64,000 nt of DNA, from the NCBI GenBank assembly GCA_963772095.1, contig CAVYVU010000017.1, positions 162,201 to 226,200 on the forward strand, written 5' to 3'. Under the pieces are notes generated by a model. That model had not been told where the DNA came from and searched no databases. It worked only from the letters and a program-made list of their open reading frames with translations. This document shows positions 56,734 through 64,000 of the stretch, one piece after another. The translations under genes were made by a program, and so were the position numbers. Source of the DNA: an uncultured Thermoleophilia bacterium (GTDB lineage Bacteria; Actinomycetota; Thermoleophilia; RBG-16-64-13). The first letter of the stretch is position 1; every line of letters begins with the position of its first letter.

Positions 56734-56993
56734 CCGGCCGCGGGATCGCCTGCACCACTCCCGCTACTTACCAGCCGGGAACGAACACCATGACCAAGTG
56801 GTGATCGTCAGGCAAGCGCTCTAGACGCCATCCATTCTGCAGCCGCCCTGCCCCAGCCCTGACGCGTCGGCTCAACGCTCTCCTTTGGTTTCGCTTCCTC
56901 ACTCCGGGGAATCTTTGGTCCGTCTGACTCATTCTGACCCCGGGGATGCAAATGGCAGCTAGCGGCTCGCTCCTTCTTGGAAAGGTGAAGAGG

Positions 56994-58598
56994 ATGAAGA
57001 GCTACGAGAGGCTCATCCTTCTTGTGCTTCTTGCCCTCGCGGTGATTGTTGCGCTTTCGGGTACCGCCCACGCCGCTGGTTTCTCGGATGTCCCGCCAAG
57101 CCACCCGTACTTCACCGCCATCTCGGATCTGGCCGGGCGCCAGGTGATAAACGGCTTTACGGACGGCACCTTCCGCCCCGACAACCCGGTAACCCGCCAG
57201 CAGTTCGCCAAGATGATCGTCAAGTCGCTCGGTCTTCCCGTCTCCGCGGCCGACACCGATCCCTTCACGGACGTGCCGACCGGCCAGGACCCCAGCGACC
57301 CTTTCTACCCTGACAAGTACGTGGCAGTGGTCTGGAAGAACGGCATAACCGCGGGGAAGACAGCCACCACCTTCGCGCCGGCCGACCACCTTACGAGTGC
57401 TCAACTCGTCACCTTGGTGGCTCGGGCCGCCCAACTGCCCGATCCCCCCGCCGACTACACTCCCCCCTTCGGTGACTTCTCTCCCGTGCACTACCCCTGG
57501 GCAAGGAAAGCGGCCTATGCTGGGCTCTTGGCTGGTCTGCAAGGGTTGGGAGAGACTTTCGACTTCACCAAGGACGCGACGCGTGGGGAATGCGCCCAGC
57601 TCCTGCATAACCTGCTCGTCCACAACCAAACGGGCAACTTCTGGAGAAACCTAAACCCCTCCGGCACCGTTCCACCTGCCCGTTACGGCCATTCTATGGT
57701 CTACCTCTCGGCCGGCGTAAGCGGAAAGACGATCCTGTTTGGAGGGGAGACCACCGTCGGGCCTGCGAACGACACCTGGGTCTACGAGCGAACCACCAAC
57801 ACCTGGACCGAGCTGAGTCCGTCCGGCCCATTGCCCTCGCCTCGCCAGGGCCAAGCCATGGTCTATGATCCGGCCAATGGTCAGGTGATCATGTTTGGAG
57901 GGCAAGGCTCTGCCGGCTACATGAACGACACCTGGGCGTACGACCCGGCGGCCAACACGTGGACTAACCTCAACCCGTCCGGTCAGTTGCCCTCGGCTCG
58001 GGTGTACCATTCGATGGCCTTTGACCCGGTGAGCGGAAAGGTGATCCTTTTCGGGGGGTTCGGCGGAGCACCGGACTTCTTATTCGACACCTGGGCCTAC
58101 GACCCCAGCGCCAACACCTGGACCCAGCTTCACCCTTCAGGCAGCGTGCCGCCCGCCCGCGACCTCTCAGCGATGGCCTACGACCCTCCCACGGCCAAGA
58201 TGATCCTCTTTGGGGGGCTCGGCACCGGTGGTGACCTGAACGACACCTGGGCTTATGACCCTGCCGCCAACTCATGGACCAACCTTAACCCCGCCGGTCC
58301 ATTGCCGACCGCCCGCAGGGGACATGCCATGGTCTACATATACGTGCAGAACGGCGGGAAGATGATCATGGAGGGCGGCAGAGCCGGCAGATCTCCAAAC
58401 GACGAGGACCTCGACGACACTGAGGTGTTCGATCCCTTTACTTTGCGCTGGGTGGAACTCGCGCCCAGGGGCCCAGTACCCGCCGCCCGTGACGGTCACG
58501 CCATGGTCCTTGGTGGGTCGGCCGGCGAGGTGATCCTCTTCGGAGGGATCGGTAACGCCGACACTCCCTTTGCCGACACCTGGGCTTACACCCCCTGA
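56994..58598 (+). CDS. S-layer homology (SLH) domain protein with a Kelch-repeat beta-propeller
   Basis: Signal peptide ...GTAHA. SLH repeats (FSDVPPSHPYFTAISDLAGRQVINGFTDGTFRPDNPVTRQQFAKM). About 6-7 Kelch-like repeats (NDTWAYDPAANTWT.L.PSG.LP.AR..H.M). Confidence 0.85.
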   Translation: MKSYERLILLVLLALAVIVALSGTAHAAGFSDVPPSHPYFTAISDLAGRQVINGFTDGTFRPDNPVTRQQFAKMIVKSLGLPVSAADTDPFTDVPTGQDPSDPFYPDKYVAVVWKNGITAGKTATTFAPADHLTSAQLVTLVARAAQLPDPPADYTPPFGDFSPVHYPWARKAAYAGLLAGLQGLGETFDFTKDATRGECAQLLHNLLVHNQTGNFWRNLNPSGTVPPARYGHSMVYLSAGVSGKTILFGGETTVGPANDTWVYERTTNTWTELSPSGPLPSPRQGQAMVYDPANGQVIMFGGQGSAGYMNDTWAYDPAANTWTNLNPSGQLPSARVYHSMAFDPVSGKVILFGGFGGAPDFLFDTWAYDPSANTWTQLHPSGSVPPARDLSAMAYDPPTAKMILFGGLGTGGDLNDTWAYDPAANSWTNLNPAGPLPTARRGHAMVYIYVQNGGKMIMEGGRAGRSPNDEDLDDTEVFDPFTLRWVELAPRGPVPAARDGHAMVLGGSAGEVILFGGIGNADTPFADTWAYTP

Positions 58599-58894: not shown

Positions 58895-59698
58895 TTACGA
58901 GGCCATTCCCAGACCGGCGCAGATTTCCACGAGTGCATCCTTGAGGTGGGTGTAGTCTCCCGCGAAGATCGGTTGGCACTGGTGGGCCGGCCGTTGGCCC
59001 TGCCATACCCGAGCCGCAAACGCCATGCAGGTCGACTCGCCACAAAGGCCGCAGTTGGTGCGCGGCAGGCGTTTGAGAATTTCCAAGACAGGCGGGCGTT
59101 TGCGCATCTCGTAGCAAGGCTCGATCTCTGTGCGCCGCGCCCAAACCGCGTTCACCTGGCGGCGGATGGCTTCCAGAGTCCGCCAGGCGTCCACCAGTTC
59201 ATCGGCCTTGGCGACCGTGATCCGCCTCTGGTAAAGAGAGATCATGCGGTAGGCATCCATGAACGTGAGGGTGGGCCCATTTCGGTCATACGAGGTGCTG
59301 TGCATCTCCGCGTTCAAATAGGGAAAGACCTCGGTCAGGTCTCCGCTGATGTGAGCGATGAGGCGTATCTTCGTTGGGTCGGCCACGCACGGAGCGAGAA
59401 CCATGATGGCGGCCGTTCCGAACAGGTCTTCCGGAAACTCGGGCGGGGGGGCGCAGGGGATAGAGATAGCCGCCGGCCGGTAGTCCGCCCAGCCGGAGCA
59501 GACGAAGTCGCCGTCACGTGGAGCAAGCCGTAGGCGCGTCTCGGCGTCCATTGCCAAAGACGGCACACCGACCCGGGCAAATCCGGGATCGGGGGAGATG
59601 ATTTCGTAGTCCAGGTCCAGATCGTCAAGCGCACGCTTGGCCTTGTCGAACTCGCAGCGCTTAGGAAATGTGGTCAGAGTGCTGGCCAAAATGGTCAC
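58895..59698 (-). CDS. Uncharacterised protein with a C-terminal RnfB/CdhD-type Fe-S motif
   Basis: LPRTNCGLCGESTCMAFAARV matches the 'putative Fe-S cluster' domain motif (LPxTNCGxCGxxxC). The N-terminal 200 aa were not recognised. Confidence 0.65.
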   Translation of the reverse strand: MTILASTLTTFPKRCEFDKAKRALDDLDLDYEIISPDPGFARVGVPSLAMDAETRLRLAPRDGDFVCSGWADYRPAAISIPCAPPPEFPEDLFGTAAIMVLAPCVADPTKIRLIAHISGDLTEVFPYLNAEMHSTSYDRNGPTLTFMDAYRMISLYQRRITVAKADELVDAWRTLEAIRRQVNAVWARRTEIEPCYEMRKRPPVLEILKRLPRTNCGLCGESTCMAFAARVWQGQRPAHQCQPIFAGDYTHLKDALVEICAGLGMAS

Positions 59699-59754: not shown

Positions 59755-60018
59755 CTATTCCAGCCCGGCCTCTCTCAGGGCCCCGATCAGTCCTTCCTTG
59801 GTGGGGCAGACCCCCACGAAGCGCACCAGGTCCCCCACAATGATGGCGGGGGCAGAAGACAACTTGAGTTCCTCGTAGCGCGCGTCACGGCCCTGGTGAT
59901 AGACGACATTCATCTGATCCCCATATGTCTCGGCCACTCCATCAATGAGCCGTCTGACGGCCACCCCGCCCGAGCAGGCAGGGACGGAGAGGAACACTTC
60001 CACCTTTATCGGATCCAT
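59755..60018 (-). CDS. Thioredoxin_3-like small protein, monothiol variant (CSGG in place of CxxC)
   Basis: 87 aa; VEVFLSVPACSGG...SSAPAIIVGDLVRFVGVCPTKEGLIGAL. Co-linear with the two upstream paralogs. Confidence 0.6.
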   Translation of the reverse strand: MDPIKVEVFLSVPACSGGVAVRRLIDGVAETYGDQMNVVYHQGRDARYEELKLSSAPAIIVGDLVRFVGVCPTKEGLIGALREAGLE

Positions 60019-60281
60019 AGCCCGCCCTCCCGGAGCGCGTTGTTCATGGTGCCCTCATCCGGGGAGGTGCCCTCTATCTTGATGACGCCGTTGATGACGG
60101 CCGCCGGCACGCAGGACAGGTTGTACTCGTCATATTTCTCCAACGCGTCCAGGCCGACGTACTTCTTCACCACAAGCTCCTCCGCTGGATACTTCTCCGC
60201 ATAGCGGTCGGCCATGGCGAGAATGGCGACACAGCCGGGGCACGGGGGCTCTCCGCTGAACACTTCCATGAGTACAGGCAC
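60006..60281 (-). CDS. Thioredoxin_3-like small protein (CPGC)
   Basis: 91 aa; MEVFSGEPPCPGC...VPAAVINGVIKIEGTSPDEGTM. GTG start behind AGGAGA. Confidence 0.7.
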   Translation of the reverse strand: MPVLMEVFSGEPPCPGCVAILAMADRYAEKYPAEELVVKKYVGLDALEKYDEYNLSCVPAAVINGVIKIEGTSPDEGTMNNALREGGLWIR

Positions 60282-60282
60282 G

Positions 60283-60540
60283 TCAGTCTCCTAGCTCGGC
60301 TCGGAAGATCCTCTCGAATTCAGGCTCCTCTGCCACTCTGCCTTGAGCCACCAGCCTTCCGTTCACCACCACGGCGGGCGTGGCCATGAGTCCTAGTTGC
60401 AGCCCTTCGGAAGAGAGCGCCGAGAGCTTCTCCACGGTCACTTGGCCGGGGAATTTGGCCGCCGCCCTCTTCGCCGCTTCCTCCGTCTTCTTGCATTTCA
60501 CGCAAGGCGGCTCACTGCCGAACACCTTGACCTCGATCAA
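60283..60540 (-). CDS. Thioredoxin_3-like small protein (CVKC)
   Basis: About 86 aa; IEVKVFGSEPPCVKC...TPAVVVNGRLVAQGRVAEEPEF. TTG start behind GAAAGGTGG is proposed; the ORF is open to 60600. Confidence 0.7.
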   Translation of the reverse strand: MIEVKVFGSEPPCVKCKKTEEAAKRAAAKFPGQVTVEKLSALSSEGLQLGLMATPAVVVNGRLVAQGRVAEEPEFERIFRAELGD

Positions 60541-60553
60541 GACGTCCCACCTT

Positions 60554-60952
60554 TCATTTCGTCGTATTTGTGACCGCTGCGCAGCAGGACTCGCTCGCAT
60601 CTCCGCCCGGAGTGCGACCGGCAGCCTTGAGCGTTAACCACTCTTCTAGGCGGCCGCCCAATTCGCGCTTTCGGTCCTCGCCAATCGCTTTCGAGAGTGC
60701 GGCGAGAATCGTCGCCTGCTCCAGGGGCAGACTGCGTGAGATCCGATAGTGCATCCACAGGCCGTCCCGGCGATCCTCGACCAGTCCGGCGTGGTGAAGG
60801 TACCGCAAATGACGGGAAGCCTTAGATTGGGTGAGCTCGAGCGCCCCCACGAAGTCGCACACGCAAAGCTCCTCCCGCTCGAGAAGAAGAGTAATGATCT
60901 GCAGTCTCGTCTCGTCAGAAAGTGCCTTGAAGGTATCGGCCAGGTCTTCCAT
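60554..60952 (-). CDS. arsR: ArsR/SmtB family metalloregulator with an ELCVCD (As(III)-type) site
   Basis: FKALSDETRLQIITLLLEREELCVCDFVGALELTQSKASRHLRYLHHAGLV. There is an extra C-terminal CC pair. Confidence 0.85.
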   Translation of the reverse strand: MEDLADTFKALSDETRLQIITLLLEREELCVCDFVGALELTQSKASRHLRYLHHAGLVEDRRDGLWMHYRISRSLPLEQATILAALSKAIGEDRKRELGGRLEEWLTLKAAGRTPGGDASESCCAAVTNTTK

Positions 60953-61136: not shown

Positions 61137-62039
61137 TCACCCGGAGTTGATTGGAGGTGGCTCCGTCTCTAGGTCCACGCCGTCGATGGTGATGGTGGGA
61201 GAGCCACGCAGACCTACTTCCCGCGCCATCACGTCGCCAACCACCTCGACGATCTCCAAAGTGGCGTCGAGGCCCAGCGCTTCGACAGCCTCGCGAACAC
61301 CGACCTCAGCGGGTGGCGCATTGTCACACACTGATGTATGCAGGATCCTGATCACAGTCATTCGCATCTCCCTAAGGCTTGGGCTCCAAGGGCCCATGAG
61401 CCGGTGCGCGGCTTCTAGGGCCGCCCGCTCGATGACTTGCCGGCCGGCATCGACGCGCAGTTCCCGCAATGTCACCAGAAAGTCACGGTGCGTGCGACCT
61501 CCCCGGTACTCCGGCTCGCGCGTCGGCTGCCGGAGCACGGCATCAGCGAGATCGTAATCAAAGCCTACCAGGACGGTGCCGTGCAAGAGCACGGATTTCC
61601 AACGGCGGCACTGAGCATTACCGGATATCTTCCGATCTCCCACGACGACATCGGAGGTGCTCGCTGGGGCGCCTCGGATACCCAAGATGTCCAGTAGACT
61701 GCAGACGAGATCCGCCCCAAAGCCATAACTTGCCTTGAGTCCGGCCAGTGAGGGGCCGGGCACGACGAGCGTGTAGTTCAGAACGTCTTCGGTCTGCAGC
61801 ACGCTGCCACCGCCCGAGACCCGGGGGAGCACCTCGACCCCGAGCCGCGCACACTCATCGAGATACACCGTCTGCTCAGGCCGCTCGCTCGCCCCCAATA
61901 CTACGGCAGGCGGGCCGCCCCACCAGAAGCGCAGCGTGCGCTCACCGGATCGGCCGGCCGTGCGGGCCATCGCCTCGTCGATGTCAAGATTCTCTCGGAC
62001 GGTCGGCGCCGTCGCCCAGAAGACGGCTGTGTTGGTCAT
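61137..62039 (-). CDS. Lipoate/octanoate-protein ligase-like (BPL_LplA_LipB domain) with a C-terminal thioredoxin-fold-like tail
   Basis: RFWWGGPPAVVLG, RVSGGGSVLQ, GDRKISGNAQ (catalytic Lys) and LLHGTVL. Then in frame: MTVIRILHTSVCDNAP...LRGSPTITIDGVDLE. The ATG overlaps the upstream ORF's stop (ATGA). Confidence 0.75.
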   Translation of the reverse strand: MTNTAVFWATAPTVRENLDIDEAMARTAGRSGERTLRFWWGGPPAVVLGASERPEQTVYLDECARLGVEVLPRVSGGGSVLQTEDVLNYTLVVPGPSLAGLKASYGFGADLVCSLLDILGIRGAPASTSDVVVGDRKISGNAQCRRWKSVLLHGTVLVGFDYDLADAVLRQPTREPEYRGGRTHRDFLVTLRELRVDAGRQVIERAALEAAHRLMGPWSPSLREMRMTVIRILHTSVCDNAPPAEVGVREAVEALGLDATLEIVEVVGDVMAREVGLRGSPTITIDGVDLETEPPPINSG

Positions 62040-62230
62040 CCGGCCAGCAAGTCCCGATACGCCACCGGGACCGCCGCTTTGTAGCACGGCTCCTCTTCCG
62101 GCGCCACGTGATGGTGGATCTTCACCATTTCCGGCAACTCAGGAACGTTCTCGCCATCCGCGGCCAATCCAACTTCCGCGCACTGACTAAAGACAGGAGG
62201 AAGAGAGACCGGCGACATCCGCGTCCTCAC
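62036..62230 (-). CDS. Small ORF (up to 64 aa), or a frameshifted C-terminus of the upstream DGC protein
   Basis: It ends in an ATGA overlap with the ligase start and overlaps the 3' end of 62187..62762 in another frame. No family was recognised. Confidence 0.3.
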   Translation of the reverse strand: MRTRMSPVSLPPVFSQCAEVGLAADGENVPELPEMVKIHHHVAPEEEPCYKAAVPVAYRDLLAG

Positions 62231-62762
62231 CCTTCAGGTGGATCCTGCCGGAGAGAGGGCGCTGCCTGCAGGCGCATACCGCCTCAGCCTCCGGTTCGAC
62301 CGATTCGCTCGATGTCGTCTCGGTAATGGCTGCCTCGCTCATCGTCTGATTCATCACAACGTCGACCGCAGCCGCGATCCGTTCGGCGACCACCCCAACC
62401 GCCTCATTGTCCACCGCGCCTCGCGAGCGCGACGACCGACTGCACCCTAGGGTGGTCGTGCCCAAGATGTCCGACACGACCAGCGCGCCGGCCACCGGCC
62501 CCCCATGTTTCTCGGTTCCCCACTTGGCACACTGCTTCTCGCAGCCATCGATCGTGATCGTAGGGTGCGTGCGGGCGAAGTTGCGCTCGCCTTCATTGCC
62601 GGCAAGAAACAAGGGCAGGCACAGGGTCACGGTCACCTCGGAGCGTAGAGATTCAAGCACTCGGCGGGTGGCGAGACGCGATATAGTCCCCTCCGGGATC
62701 TCCTCGCCGCTGCAGGAGATGATGCCGACTTTGATAGTAGGCGTGCTGGTGGAATCGCTCAT
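62187..62762 (-). CDS. DGC-domain protein (putative Cys4 metal-binding) with a C-terminal extension
   Basis: KVGIISCSGEE...THPTITIDGCEKQCAKW. The start ATG overlaps the upstream stop (ATGA). Confidence 0.7.
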   Translation of the reverse strand: MSDSTSTPTIKVGIISCSGEEIPEGTISRLATRRVLESLRSEVTVTLCLPLFLAGNEGERNFARTHPTITIDGCEKQCAKWGTEKHGGPVAGALVVSDILGTTTLGCSRSSRSRGAVDNEAVGVVAERIAAAVDVVMNQTMSEAAITETTSSESVEPEAEAVCACRQRPLSGRIHLKGEDADVAGLSSSCL

Positions 62763-63217
62763 CGCCCCTTCTCCTTGCCGCTCCCCAGACGAGCCGCTTC
62801 GGCCACCACGGTTTCCGCGATTTCTCGGGCGATCACCCATCCGTCTTTGGTCAGAGTCGAGCCTGAACCTGGTTGCGCTCCGCGATGGTCCTTGAGCGCC
62901 GCCGCAACTTGCACAGCCTTCGCGACCGTTCCGCCCGCCAACGTCACGTTCTTTTGCGCGCAAGCCTTGCCGCAGCCGTCGATGGTTATGCAGCGGTGCG
63001 TTTGCACGTCCGCTACGGCTTCGGGATCGCCTTTCACGAGCAACGCCAAGCACAGTGTGTCGGTCTCCTTCGGCGCCAACTCGTCCGTCACCAGGTAGGT
63101 GGCCTCGCGGCTGAGGAGCCCATGCACCTTGCCGATCCCACTGCAGGGAATGATCAGCACCGGATTTTCACTTGCTCCGCGTTTCACTGTTCTACGTATT
63201 CCTTCATGTAATCGCAT
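62759..63217 (-). CDS. DGC-domain protein
   Basis: VLIIPCSGIGKVHG...THRCITIDGCGKACAQKN. Confidence 0.7.
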   Translation of the reverse strand: MRLHEGIRRTVKRGASENPVLIIPCSGIGKVHGLLSREATYLVTDELAPKETDTLCLALLVKGDPEAVADVQTHRCITIDGCGKACAQKNVTLAGGTVAKAVQVAAALKDHRGAQPGSGSTLTKDGWVIAREIAETVVAEAARLGSGKEKGR

Positions 63218-63239: not shown

Positions 63240-64000
63240 TCACTCTTCGGCCGCTTTGCGCTCGAGAGTCTCGGCGTAGGCGGGTCCGTCCAGGAGAAGT
63301 TCCCGGTCATTTTGCCAGTCGGAGAGTTCGATCTCGGCAAGCCAACCACGACCATAGGGGTCTTCGTTCGCCAGCTCCGGGATTTCTTCGACCGCTGGGT
63401 TCGTAGCCACGACGGTGCCGCTCACAGGCGACACGATTTCGAAGACGGCCTTAGTCGATTCCACCGAACCCAACTCGCCGAACTGCTCCACTACAGCGCC
63501 GGCCTGGGGCGGATCAAAATAGTTGATGTCGGTGAGGCGCTGCTGCATGTAGTCGGAGATGCCCACCCGCGCCCGGGCGTCGGCCACCCGGACCCAGACG
63601 TCGTTTTCGTTGAAAAGGTATTCGCTCTTCGGTATGCGGAACTCGAACTTGTCGTACACCACGGTCAGGAATTCCGCCGGCGCCTCCCAGTCCGCAGCCG
63701 TTTCCGCTGCGGCAGCCGGAGCGTTCAGCGAGGAGATGAGGCCATCGGCGATGGTCTGGACCAGCGCCATCTCATTCGGCCCCAGTCGAAGCGAATCCTC
63801 CAGGGACTGACCGGCAGCCTTAGCGACTTCCGAAACCAACACTTTGCGCTCGGGCTTCGCTCGCATCGTTGCCGCCAACTTGCTCGCGCAGCGCGTGGCG
63901 CAGCCGTCAACAACGACCAGCGCATTTTCGGCCAGGAGCTTCTTGTAGCGGACCGGTGTGCGGTTCAGAAGCACCGGGCAGACGATCTCGGCCCCGGTCT
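63240..64000 (-). CDS. DGC-domain :: GcvH-like lipoyl-carrier fusion (5' partial; continues beyond the window)
   Basis: The frame is open to the window edge (..GAEIVCPVLLNRTP..ALVVVDGCATRCASK). An Ala-rich linker follows, then VWVRV..RVGISDYMQQRLTDI..GSVESTKAVFEIVSPVSGTV..NEDPYGRGWL (H-protein pattern with the lipoyl-Lys position). Confidence 0.75.
   Translation of the reverse strand, partial: TGAEIVCPVLLNRTPVRYKKLLAENALVVVDGCATRCASKLAATMRAKPERKVLVSEVAKAAGQSLEDSLRLGPNEMALVQTIADGLISSLNAPAAAAETAADWEAPAEFLTVVYDKFEFRIPKSEYLFNENDVWVRVADARARVGISDYMQQRLTDINYFDPPQAGAVVEQFGELGSVESTKAVFEIVSPVSGTVVATNPAVEEIPELANEDPYGRGWLAEIELSDWQNDRELLLDGPAYAETLERKAAEE

Follow-up and report, generated by a model that had tools for sequence, protein, structure and literature searches.

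In-frame fusion of a DGC domain with a GcvH-like lipoyl carrier in a conserved gene module associated with ArsR and arsenic-resistance genes

The window analysed here is a stretch of 64,000 nucleotides from an uncultured Thermoleophilia bacterium (GTDB lineage Bacteria; Actinomycetota; Thermoleophilia; RBG-16-64-13; GenBank assembly GCA_963772095.1, contig CAVYVU010000017.1, positions 162,201 to 226,200 of the forward strand). At its end, on the minus strand, lies a gene that joins a DGC domain to a domain resembling GcvH, the H protein of glycine cleavage. An earlier note on this DNA had described an in-frame fusion open to the window edge, and Pfam matches to both domains together with a full-length database copy bear this out. 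The stop codon occupies 63240-63242 and the reading frame is open as far as base 64000; the window covers the last 252 of 281 residues and the first 29 codons lie past its edge. The gene and its parts, all on the minus strand, are as follows.

63240..>64000, minus: DGC-GcvH fusion gene, partial, residues 30-281 of 281 plus stop codon
63723..64000, minus: DGC domain, visible residues 30-121 (Pfam match, invariant columns, AlphaFold2 (AF2) predicted local distance difference test (pLDDT) 93.7)
63675..63722, minus: Ala-rich flexible linker NAPAAAAETAADWEAP, residues 122-137 (pLDDT <50 at 124-130; gapped, variable alignment columns)
63630..63671, minus: beta-hairpin extension before the GcvH fold, residues 139-152 (motif DKFxFR[IV]P, invariant Lys146)
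63243..63629, minus: GcvH-like lipoyl carrier domain, residues 153-281 (Pfam, alignments, AF2/Foldseek)

The full-length database protein P0001 (281 amino acids, aa) is 100 % identical to the fusion and supplies the missing 29 residues, including Cys8 (MKLAILSC...). On the visible 252 aa, GCV_H (PF01597) matches with an E-value of 1.2e-29 and 103.2 bits (cut-off 22.2) over profile positions 3-121 of 122, and DGC (PF08859) with E 6e-9 and 36.3 bits (cut-off 27) over profile positions 28-91 of 106, the latter score coming from a partial domain since the window edge cuts its N-terminus. These E-values exclude a chance origin of the matches. The three strings quoted earlier, VVVDGCATRCASK, NAPAAAAETAADWEAP and SVESTKAV, are all present in the open reading frame (ORF). 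The earlier note had allowed that the two halves might turn out to be separate genes or an assembly error; the same architecture, uniformly about 281 aa long, recurs in hundreds of assemblies made independently, which rules out an assembly or frameshift artefact. The AF2 model of the fusion (71 homologues) has a mean pLDDT of 90, with disorder confined to residues 124-130, and in an alignment of 25 fusion proteins the length of the linker differs between homologues. The gene is confirmed as encoding an in-frame two-domain protein, a cysteine-containing DGC domain tethered to a GcvH-like lipoyl carrier.

Lys212 (codon 63450-63452), within the SVESTKAV context, falls in the lipoyl-lysine column of the GcvH proteins of T. 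thermophilus, T. maritima and E. coli (structures 1onl, 1zko and 3a8i), which answers the question of the lysine column in favour of the original assignment. Lys212 and Glu209, at position -3, are both invariant in the 25 fusion proteins, at identities as low as 26 %, Lys212 does not vary in a second alignment either, and it is the predicted lipoylation site. The domain shares with canonical GcvH (PF01597) the ExxK context of the lipoyl lysine, with Glu at -3, about 38 % identity to the E. coli and T. thermophilus proteins, and the fold, the AF2 domain superposing on 1onl and 3ab9 with a target-normalised TM-score of 0.94 and a root-mean-square deviation of 1.1-1.2 Å (Foldseek). It differs from canonical GcvH in being fused to DGC, in scoring slightly under the NCBIfam GcvH equivalog cut-offs (TIGR00527 / PRK01202, 105.6 against 115.85 and 112.5 against 117), in not having been found beside gcvT or gcvP, and in its hairpin. 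This DKFxFR[IV]P hairpin, with its invariant Lys146, is common to fused and unfused members (P0152, P0153, P0156, P0167, P0183 and P0184), is lacking in canonical GcvH and marks the subfamily. The GcvH part (residues 138-281) contains no cysteine. Judged by these sequence features, the carrier is a GcvH-like subfamily of its own, free of cysteine and bearing an N-terminal DKFxFRVP hairpin.

The DGC half contributes the cysteines. Within its motif VVVDGCATRCASK, Asp60-Gly61-Cys62 is encoded at 63900-63908 (Cys62 at 63900-63902) and Cys66 at 63888-63890; the codon of Cys36 is 63978-63980, while Cys8 lies off the window. All four cysteines are present in P0001, and Cys8, Cys62 and Cys66 are invariant among the fusions aligned. 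A model of the DGC domain alone (pLDDT 93.7; predicted TM-score, pTM, 0.88) adopts a Rossmann-like four-stranded alpha/beta fold with Cys8, Cys36 and Cys62 at the C-terminal tips of strands 1-3 and with Cys66 on the helix that comes next. From this secondary-structure topology, the DGC cysteines should cluster in one site atop the sheet. As(III) favours three-thiolate sites; zinc binding by DGC is a supposition in the family description. No PDB structure matches this confident DGC-only model at E <1e-3 (Foldseek; best E 4e-3, TM-score at most 0.47), which leaves a DsrE-like or MvhD-like reading of the domain without support. Matches of the full-length fusion model to the PDB were dominated by GcvH and are uninformative for DGC.

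The architecture is widespread. Two database searches returned at least 240 clusters among the matches listed, of about 281-299 aa and all carrying PF08859 and PF01597; an exhaustive search of 50 %-identity representatives gave about 25 full-length fusion clusters at 50 % identity, the lowest at 26 %; and a GTDB scan of one genome per species found fusion relatives in at least 272 species genomes. A search for the combined architecture had been suggested earlier, and these are its yield. Carriers include Acidobacteriota, Thermoleophilia/Gaiellales, Planctomycetota, Armatimonadota, Clostridia, Desulfovibrio and Dehalococcoidales, among them the cultured Clostridium ragsdalei, several Acetobacterium species and Moorella; a profile search added Desulfosporosinus, Caloramator and Asgard archaea. 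Database entries label the fusion either 'glycine cleavage system protein H' or 'putative zinc-binding protein'. Since databases already hold the architecture, the sequence itself is no discovery. No plasmid-borne fusion copies with curated annotation were found; plasmids gave canonical gcvH only, which in this control search adjoins gcvT and gcvP.

Unfused GcvH-like proteins of about 150 aa that carry the DKFxFRV hairpin also occur, and in three of the three cases examined their gene adjoins DGC genes, in the following arrangements.

Unfused arrangement 1: GcvH-like -> DGC
Unfused arrangement 2 (locus L089): ArsR -> GcvH-like -> DGC -> DGC -> OsmC -> Trx_3
Unfused arrangement 3: DGC-DGC-GcvH-like-DGC-DGC-Fer4

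When two domains are fused in some genomes and encoded side by side in others, this is a classical sign that they act jointly, and comparative genomics strongly backs a functional DGC/GcvH partnership. The earlier suggestion that the DGC domain is the reaction partner of the lipoyl arm is therefore sustained as to partnership, given the spread over at least 272 species, the unfused adjacency and the two further DGC genes that follow the fusion; the chemistry between lipoyl group and DGC cysteines is the part of that claim which can only be inferred.

Gene neighbourhoods were compared in 83 loci (82 related loci plus the window) by calling ORFs, clustering them and building family profiles. The order CxC125, Fer95, DGC-GcvH, DGC2, DGC3 is nearly universal, and the families were counted as follows.

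CxC125: 77 of 83 loci
Fer95: 79 of 83 loci
DGC2: 81 of 83 loci, straight after the fusion in nearly all gene maps
DGC3: 77 of 83 loci
ArsR-family regulator: 71 of 83 loci
ArsE-family thioredoxin: 62 of 83 loci
LplA-like ligase: 41 of 83 loci
ACR3: 24 of 83 loci
ArsF/ArsG: 22-24 of 83 loci
ArsC-like gene of the low-molecular-weight protein tyrosine phosphatase (LMW-PTP) type: 20 of 83 loci, below cut-off
AhpD-like gene: 15 of 83 loci
ArsP-like permease: 11 of 83 loci
Dihydrolipoyl dehydrogenase (Lpd): about 10 of 83 loci
Cysteine desulfurase (SclA-like): 10 of 83 loci
ArsA: 9 of 83 loci

The fusion is thus the middle gene of a conserved five-gene core that encodes an iron-sulfur (Fe-S) protein resembling the HdrA N-terminal domain, a ferredoxin, DGC-GcvH and two further DGC proteins. 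CxC125 has 125 aa and five invariant cysteines (MCVCTGKCPGF...HPQLCE...CAPNMQ), belongs to no Pfam family (e.g. L002:9347-9724, L083:6939-7337), is 63-94 % identical between Acidobacteriota and Clostridia and remains recognisable in Asgard archaea. Its profile matches the HdrA N-terminal domain in three solved complexes (7bkb_A residues 7-93, E 6e-4). CxC125, the most conserved gene of the module, may be its catalytic core; in the source genome it is expected, together with Fer95, just past base 64000, and Actinomycetota relatives suggest an ACR3 gene farther upstream. It was also considered as a distant DGC homologue and rejected (hhalign probability 0.8 %). Fer95 is a ferredoxin of about 95 aa with two [4Fe-4S] clusters. 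Some loci carry additional genes: the Asgard module has an extra CMD/AhpD-like gene and a PF28096 'CC_Se_fam' gene (L083:9760-10050, L083:7640-7990), and Desulfosporosinus metallidurans an extra Se_S_carrier (PF11823) and a cysteine desulfurase (L087:5113-6593).

Neither in the window nor in the annotated neighbourhoods of the 83 loci was gcvT or gcvP found. This bears on the plainest account of the gene, an ordinary glycine-cleavage H protein with an incidental zinc-binding N-terminal domain, which its database name, its identity to E. coli and T. thermophilus GcvH and its scores barely below the NCBIfam cut-offs would suggest. The subfamily hairpin and the constant context of DGC, Fe-S proteins and ArsR speak for a role other than glycine cleavage, and we regard this account as very improbable.

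Downstream of the fusion, the window contains a run of co-directional genes.

62759..63217, minus: DGC2, second DGC protein, 152 aa (Pfam DGC E 1.8e-13; start 22 nt past the fusion stop)
62187..62762, minus: DGC3, third DGC protein, 191 aa (Pfam DGC E 1.7e-16; start overlaps the DGC2 stop, ATGA)
61137..62087, minus: LplA/LipB-superfamily ligase with a C-terminal thioredoxin-like 'DF family' domain (PF21948 E 4.3e-31)
60554..60952, minus: ArsR/SmtB repressor with ELCVCDF, an As(III)-type CVC site (HTH_5 E 1.3e-14; NF033788 93.7 against 55)
59755..60600, minus: three tandem small thioredoxin-fold genes, MTH895/ArsE-like (Thioredoxin_3 matches)
60283-60600, minus: thioredoxin-fold gene 1, CVKC, overlapping the end of arsR
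60006-60281, minus: thioredoxin-fold gene 2, CPGC
59755-60018, minus: thioredoxin-fold gene 3, monothiol CSGG
58895..59698, minus: protein of 267 aa whose C-terminal part is a PF04060 Fe-S domain (RnfB/CdhG N-terminal type), the last co-directional gene

DGC3 of the window has a Cys-rich C-terminal tail containing CAC, and its orthologues (e.g. L002:11287-11985) have variable Cys-rich C-terminal tails beyond the DGC domain, with CAC/CSC pairs and more cysteines. The ligase gene, third downstream of the fusion, has a likely ATG start at 62039 and carries a GDRKISGNAQ motif, which we read as the probable site of the catalytic lysine. Its C-terminal domain, which replaces the usual LplA accessory domain, resembles the 'DF family (seleno)protein' model NF049942 (DF_fam_seleno, E 2e-11, below cut-off); orthologues in related loci mostly consist of the catalytic domain alone (215-280 aa). 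The thioredoxin-fold genes match TIGR00412 and TIGR00411 below cut-offs, and the L002 orthologue scores 101 against 62. In the PF04060 protein the N-terminal ~200 aa match no assigned domain; relatives of 173-484 aa occur in 13 of the 83 loci, and the best scores of the ferredoxin family that adjoins this protein are to HgcB-like models. Immediately downstream of the operon, on the opposite strand, lies a 550-aa secreted protein (56946-58598, plus) with, by eye, an SLH-like N-terminus and many Kelch-like repeats. A promoter and terminator scan of 58.5-64 kb gave one promoter-like site upstream of arsR, which equals the chance rate, and no terminators.

NCBIfam models for lipoate ligases match the window ligase far below their cut-offs, so that a specific ligase subtype is unsupported. 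One alternative idea is that the system is a lipoate decoy or repair device, in which the GcvH-like domain would be a sacrificial As(III) sink, or a lipoyl donor for poisoned 2-oxoacid dehydrogenases via a LipM/LipL-like ligase, with the DGC proteins structural or metal-binding only. B. subtilis GcvH is a lipoyl relay donor and As(III) inhibits lipoyl enzymes, and an LplA-superfamily gene is present in the window and in 41 of the 83 loci, with all subtype-specific models below cut-off. The idea leaves the near-universal Fe-S proteins and the three DGC paralogues, all better conserved than the ligase, unexplained, and no lipoyl synthase turned up in the annotated neighbour clusters. We consider it improbable.

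Gene neighbourhood ties the module to ArsR and the ars genes. This evidence can be summarised as (i) the presence of ACR3, ArsA, ArsC, ArsF or ArsG within 7 kb in 50 of the 83 loci (the ArsC-like cluster being below cut-off); (ii) scores above NCBIfam cut-offs for ACR3 (461 against 283), ArsG (276 against 200), ArsF (110 against 60), the ArsE family (101 against 62), ArsA (816 against 650) and, among the lipoyl enzymes, Lpd (517 against 409); (iii) a CVC motif in the nearest ArsR of 69 of 71 loci, either in the alpha-3 ELCVCD/ERCVCE form or in a C-terminal form. In R773 ArsR, Cys32 and Cys34 of the ELCVCD motif make up the site that senses As(III). In P. mercurii an ArsR-ArsP-ArsE-DGC operon has been noted in passing, with no function stated for DGC (bioRxiv 10.1101/2022.10.17.512643). 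The fusion had earlier been expected to provide a functional handle on the DGC family; the real handle is this ArsR/ars link of the whole module. The earlier note overlooked that link, along with the five-gene core and its two Fe-S proteins, the downstream ligase and the prior cataloguing of the architecture in databases.

The same neighbourhoods have to be weighed against a more general function, a lipoyl-dependent thiol reductase relay directed at oxidative or electrophile stress, in which the lipoyl arm reduces the DGC proteins, these reduce peroxidase-type partners, and arsenic is one inducer of several. AhpD and Ohr receive electrons from lipoylated proteins, and AhpD/CMD-like genes in about 18 loci, OsmC downstream of the unfused cluster in L089, Lpd in about ten loci, thioredoxin-fold genes that are nearly always present and Asgard loci devoid of ars transporters would all fit such a relay. 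However, the annotated neighbour clusters yielded no peroxiredoxin, and OsmC was seen in one unfused locus only; the regulator in 69 of 71 loci is a CVC-type ArsR, not OxyR, PerR or OhrR; and the commonest specific neighbours are ACR3, ArsA, ArsC, ArsF/ArsG and ArsP. A general stress relay seems unlikely.

A sulfur or selenium role is raised by the likeness of CxC125 to the HdrA N-terminal domain and by accessory genes that hint at a chalcogen link in some lineages. Here the module would be a persulfide/perselenide carrier system analogous to LbpA/sHdr with DsrE/TusA, the DGC cysteines carrying the chalcogen and the lipoyl arm accepting or reducing it. Cysteine desulfurase/SclA-like genes in ten loci, Se_S_carrier and rhodanese in D. 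metallidurans, YeeE-type Sulf_transp and rhodanese genes close to L001, and a weak NCBIfam likeness to the Tso selenoprotein system (GcvH_rel_desulf, TsoR, TsoC, TsoX) point in this direction. All of the Tso matches lie below cut-offs, with GcvH_rel_desulf at 38.8 against 150 and TsoR at 41.1 against 115, as do TsoC and TsoX; the core contains no sHdr B/C, DsrE or TusA; the PDB search with the DGC model gave nothing DsrE-like; and sulfur/selenium genes are far rarer neighbours than ars genes. The cysteine pair that marks LbpA is also missing from this carrier, whose GcvH domain is cysteine-free. We judge a chalcogen carrier distinctly unlikely.

As the best reading we tentatively propose that the module is an arsenite-induced lipoyl-dithiol relay under ArsR control; Fe-S proteins would feed it, and the lipoyl arm would have the DGC cysteine sites as its partners. 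The data show how the domains are arranged, that Lys212 lies in the lipoyl-lysine column, that gene order is conserved and that the module is associated with ArsR and ars genes. From these we infer lipoylation, an electron path, a DGC chemistry and a substrate. Dihydrolipoamide is a classic high-affinity target of As(III). Arsenite would free the operon from ArsR, and the dedicated ligase would attach a lipoyl group to Lys212. The lipoyl disulfide would then be reduced via the ferredoxin and the HdrA-N-like protein, or via Lpd where this is encoded. Carried on a flexible tether of 15-35 residues, the dihydrolipoyl arm could reach the cysteine sites of all three DGC domains, where either dithiol/disulfide exchange or the hand-over of a thiophilic arsenical would take place. 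If the arm does visit the DGC cysteines, the module would serve as a relay, supplying reductant or acting as a chaperone, for arsenicals heading for ACR3, ArsA, ArsP or ArsG. A more specific form of the proposal, in which the five-gene core is an unrecognised ferredoxin-driven, lipoate-dependent arsenical processor, that is, a reductase of As(V) or pentavalent organoarsenicals or a lipoyl-to-cysteine As(III) chaperone, is conceivable but rather doubtful.

Several observations weigh against an arsenical relay. The 64-kb window contains no arsenic transporter or reductase, only ArsR and the ArsE-like thioredoxins, with the upstream side cut off. Hard ars genes are missing within 7 kb in 33 of the 83 loci, an ArsR-type regulator is the sole ars element in the Asgard loci, and some loci carry cysteine desulfurase, Se_S_carrier, rhodanese, AhpD/CMD or OsmC instead. 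Within the protein, Cys36 is missing from the most distant fusions and the AF2 model does not define how the DGC and GcvH domains are placed relative to each other (pTM 0.57). The putative DGC site could equally well hold zinc, an Fe-S cluster, a redox disulfide or arsenic. Our literature search found no published study of the DGC-GcvH fusion or its module.

Set beside known systems, the module appears to work most like the non-canonical lipoyl carriers LbpA and GcvH-L and the lipoyl thiol relays, whilst failing membership of both named carrier families. LbpA of the sHdr system is likewise a GcvH-like carrier outside glycine cleavage, with its own LplA-type ligase and a tie to Hdr-related Fe-S proteins. 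LbpA proteins are marked by two conserved cysteines, one towards either terminus (Cao et al. 2018, PMC6067878). The fusion lacks both of these cysteines and an shdr gene cluster, and LbpA membership was rejected; LipS1/LipS2, DsrE3 and TusA are missing as well. The fusion has DGC as its partner, and its setting is one of ars genes and not of sulfur oxidation. The sHdr link of the module is limited to the 125-aa protein resembling the HdrA N-terminal domain. The GcvH-L/LplA2/SirTM/macrodomain operon of Streptococcus and Staphylococcus similarly serves the stress response and pairs a specialised GcvH-like carrier with a ligase of its own, but identity to GcvH-L is only 22 % (Foldseek E 7e-7 to 5a35) and the neighbourhoods showed neither sirtuin nor macrodomain genes. 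The Lpd-DlaT-AhpD-AhpC system of M. tuberculosis and lipoyl-dependent Ohr/OsmC embody the same proposed principle, a protein-bound dihydrolipoyl arm that reduces a cysteine partner. Compared with these relays, the carrier here is GcvH-like and not an E2 lipoyl domain, the partner is DGC, electron input is apparently through Fe-S proteins and control is by ArsR. The module shares its setting, its regulator type, small Cys-rich proteins and ArsE-type thioredoxins with ars accessories already described (ArsD, which is an As(III) metallochaperone, the relay of ArsC and thioredoxin, ArsEFG, and the P. mercurii operon). We found no described ars system in the literature that uses a lipoyl carrier, and DGC has no assigned function in any of the ars systems compared. 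We regard the module as a dedicated system built on a GcvH-like carrier, in which both the partner domain and the context, the latter probably related to arsenic, are new.

To our knowledge, the established roles of protein-bound lipoate are few: the 2-oxoacid dehydrogenases, glycine cleavage, sHdr sulfur oxidation and some redox relays. In the present case one polypeptide joins a lipoyl carrier to a domain without assigned function, in a module kept from Acidobacteriota and Clostridia to Asgard archaea. The genomic logic points to a possible role of lipoate in metalloid handling, the dihydrolipoyl group being the classic target of arsenite. Cultured hosts in which this can be tested exist in Acetobacterium spp., Clostridium ragsdalei and Desulfosporosinus. 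The DGC family ('putative zinc-binding protein') and CxC125 become testable candidates in arsenic biology. If the proposal is correct, metalloid detoxification would be a new role for protein-bound lipoate, and the DGC family would gain its first function.

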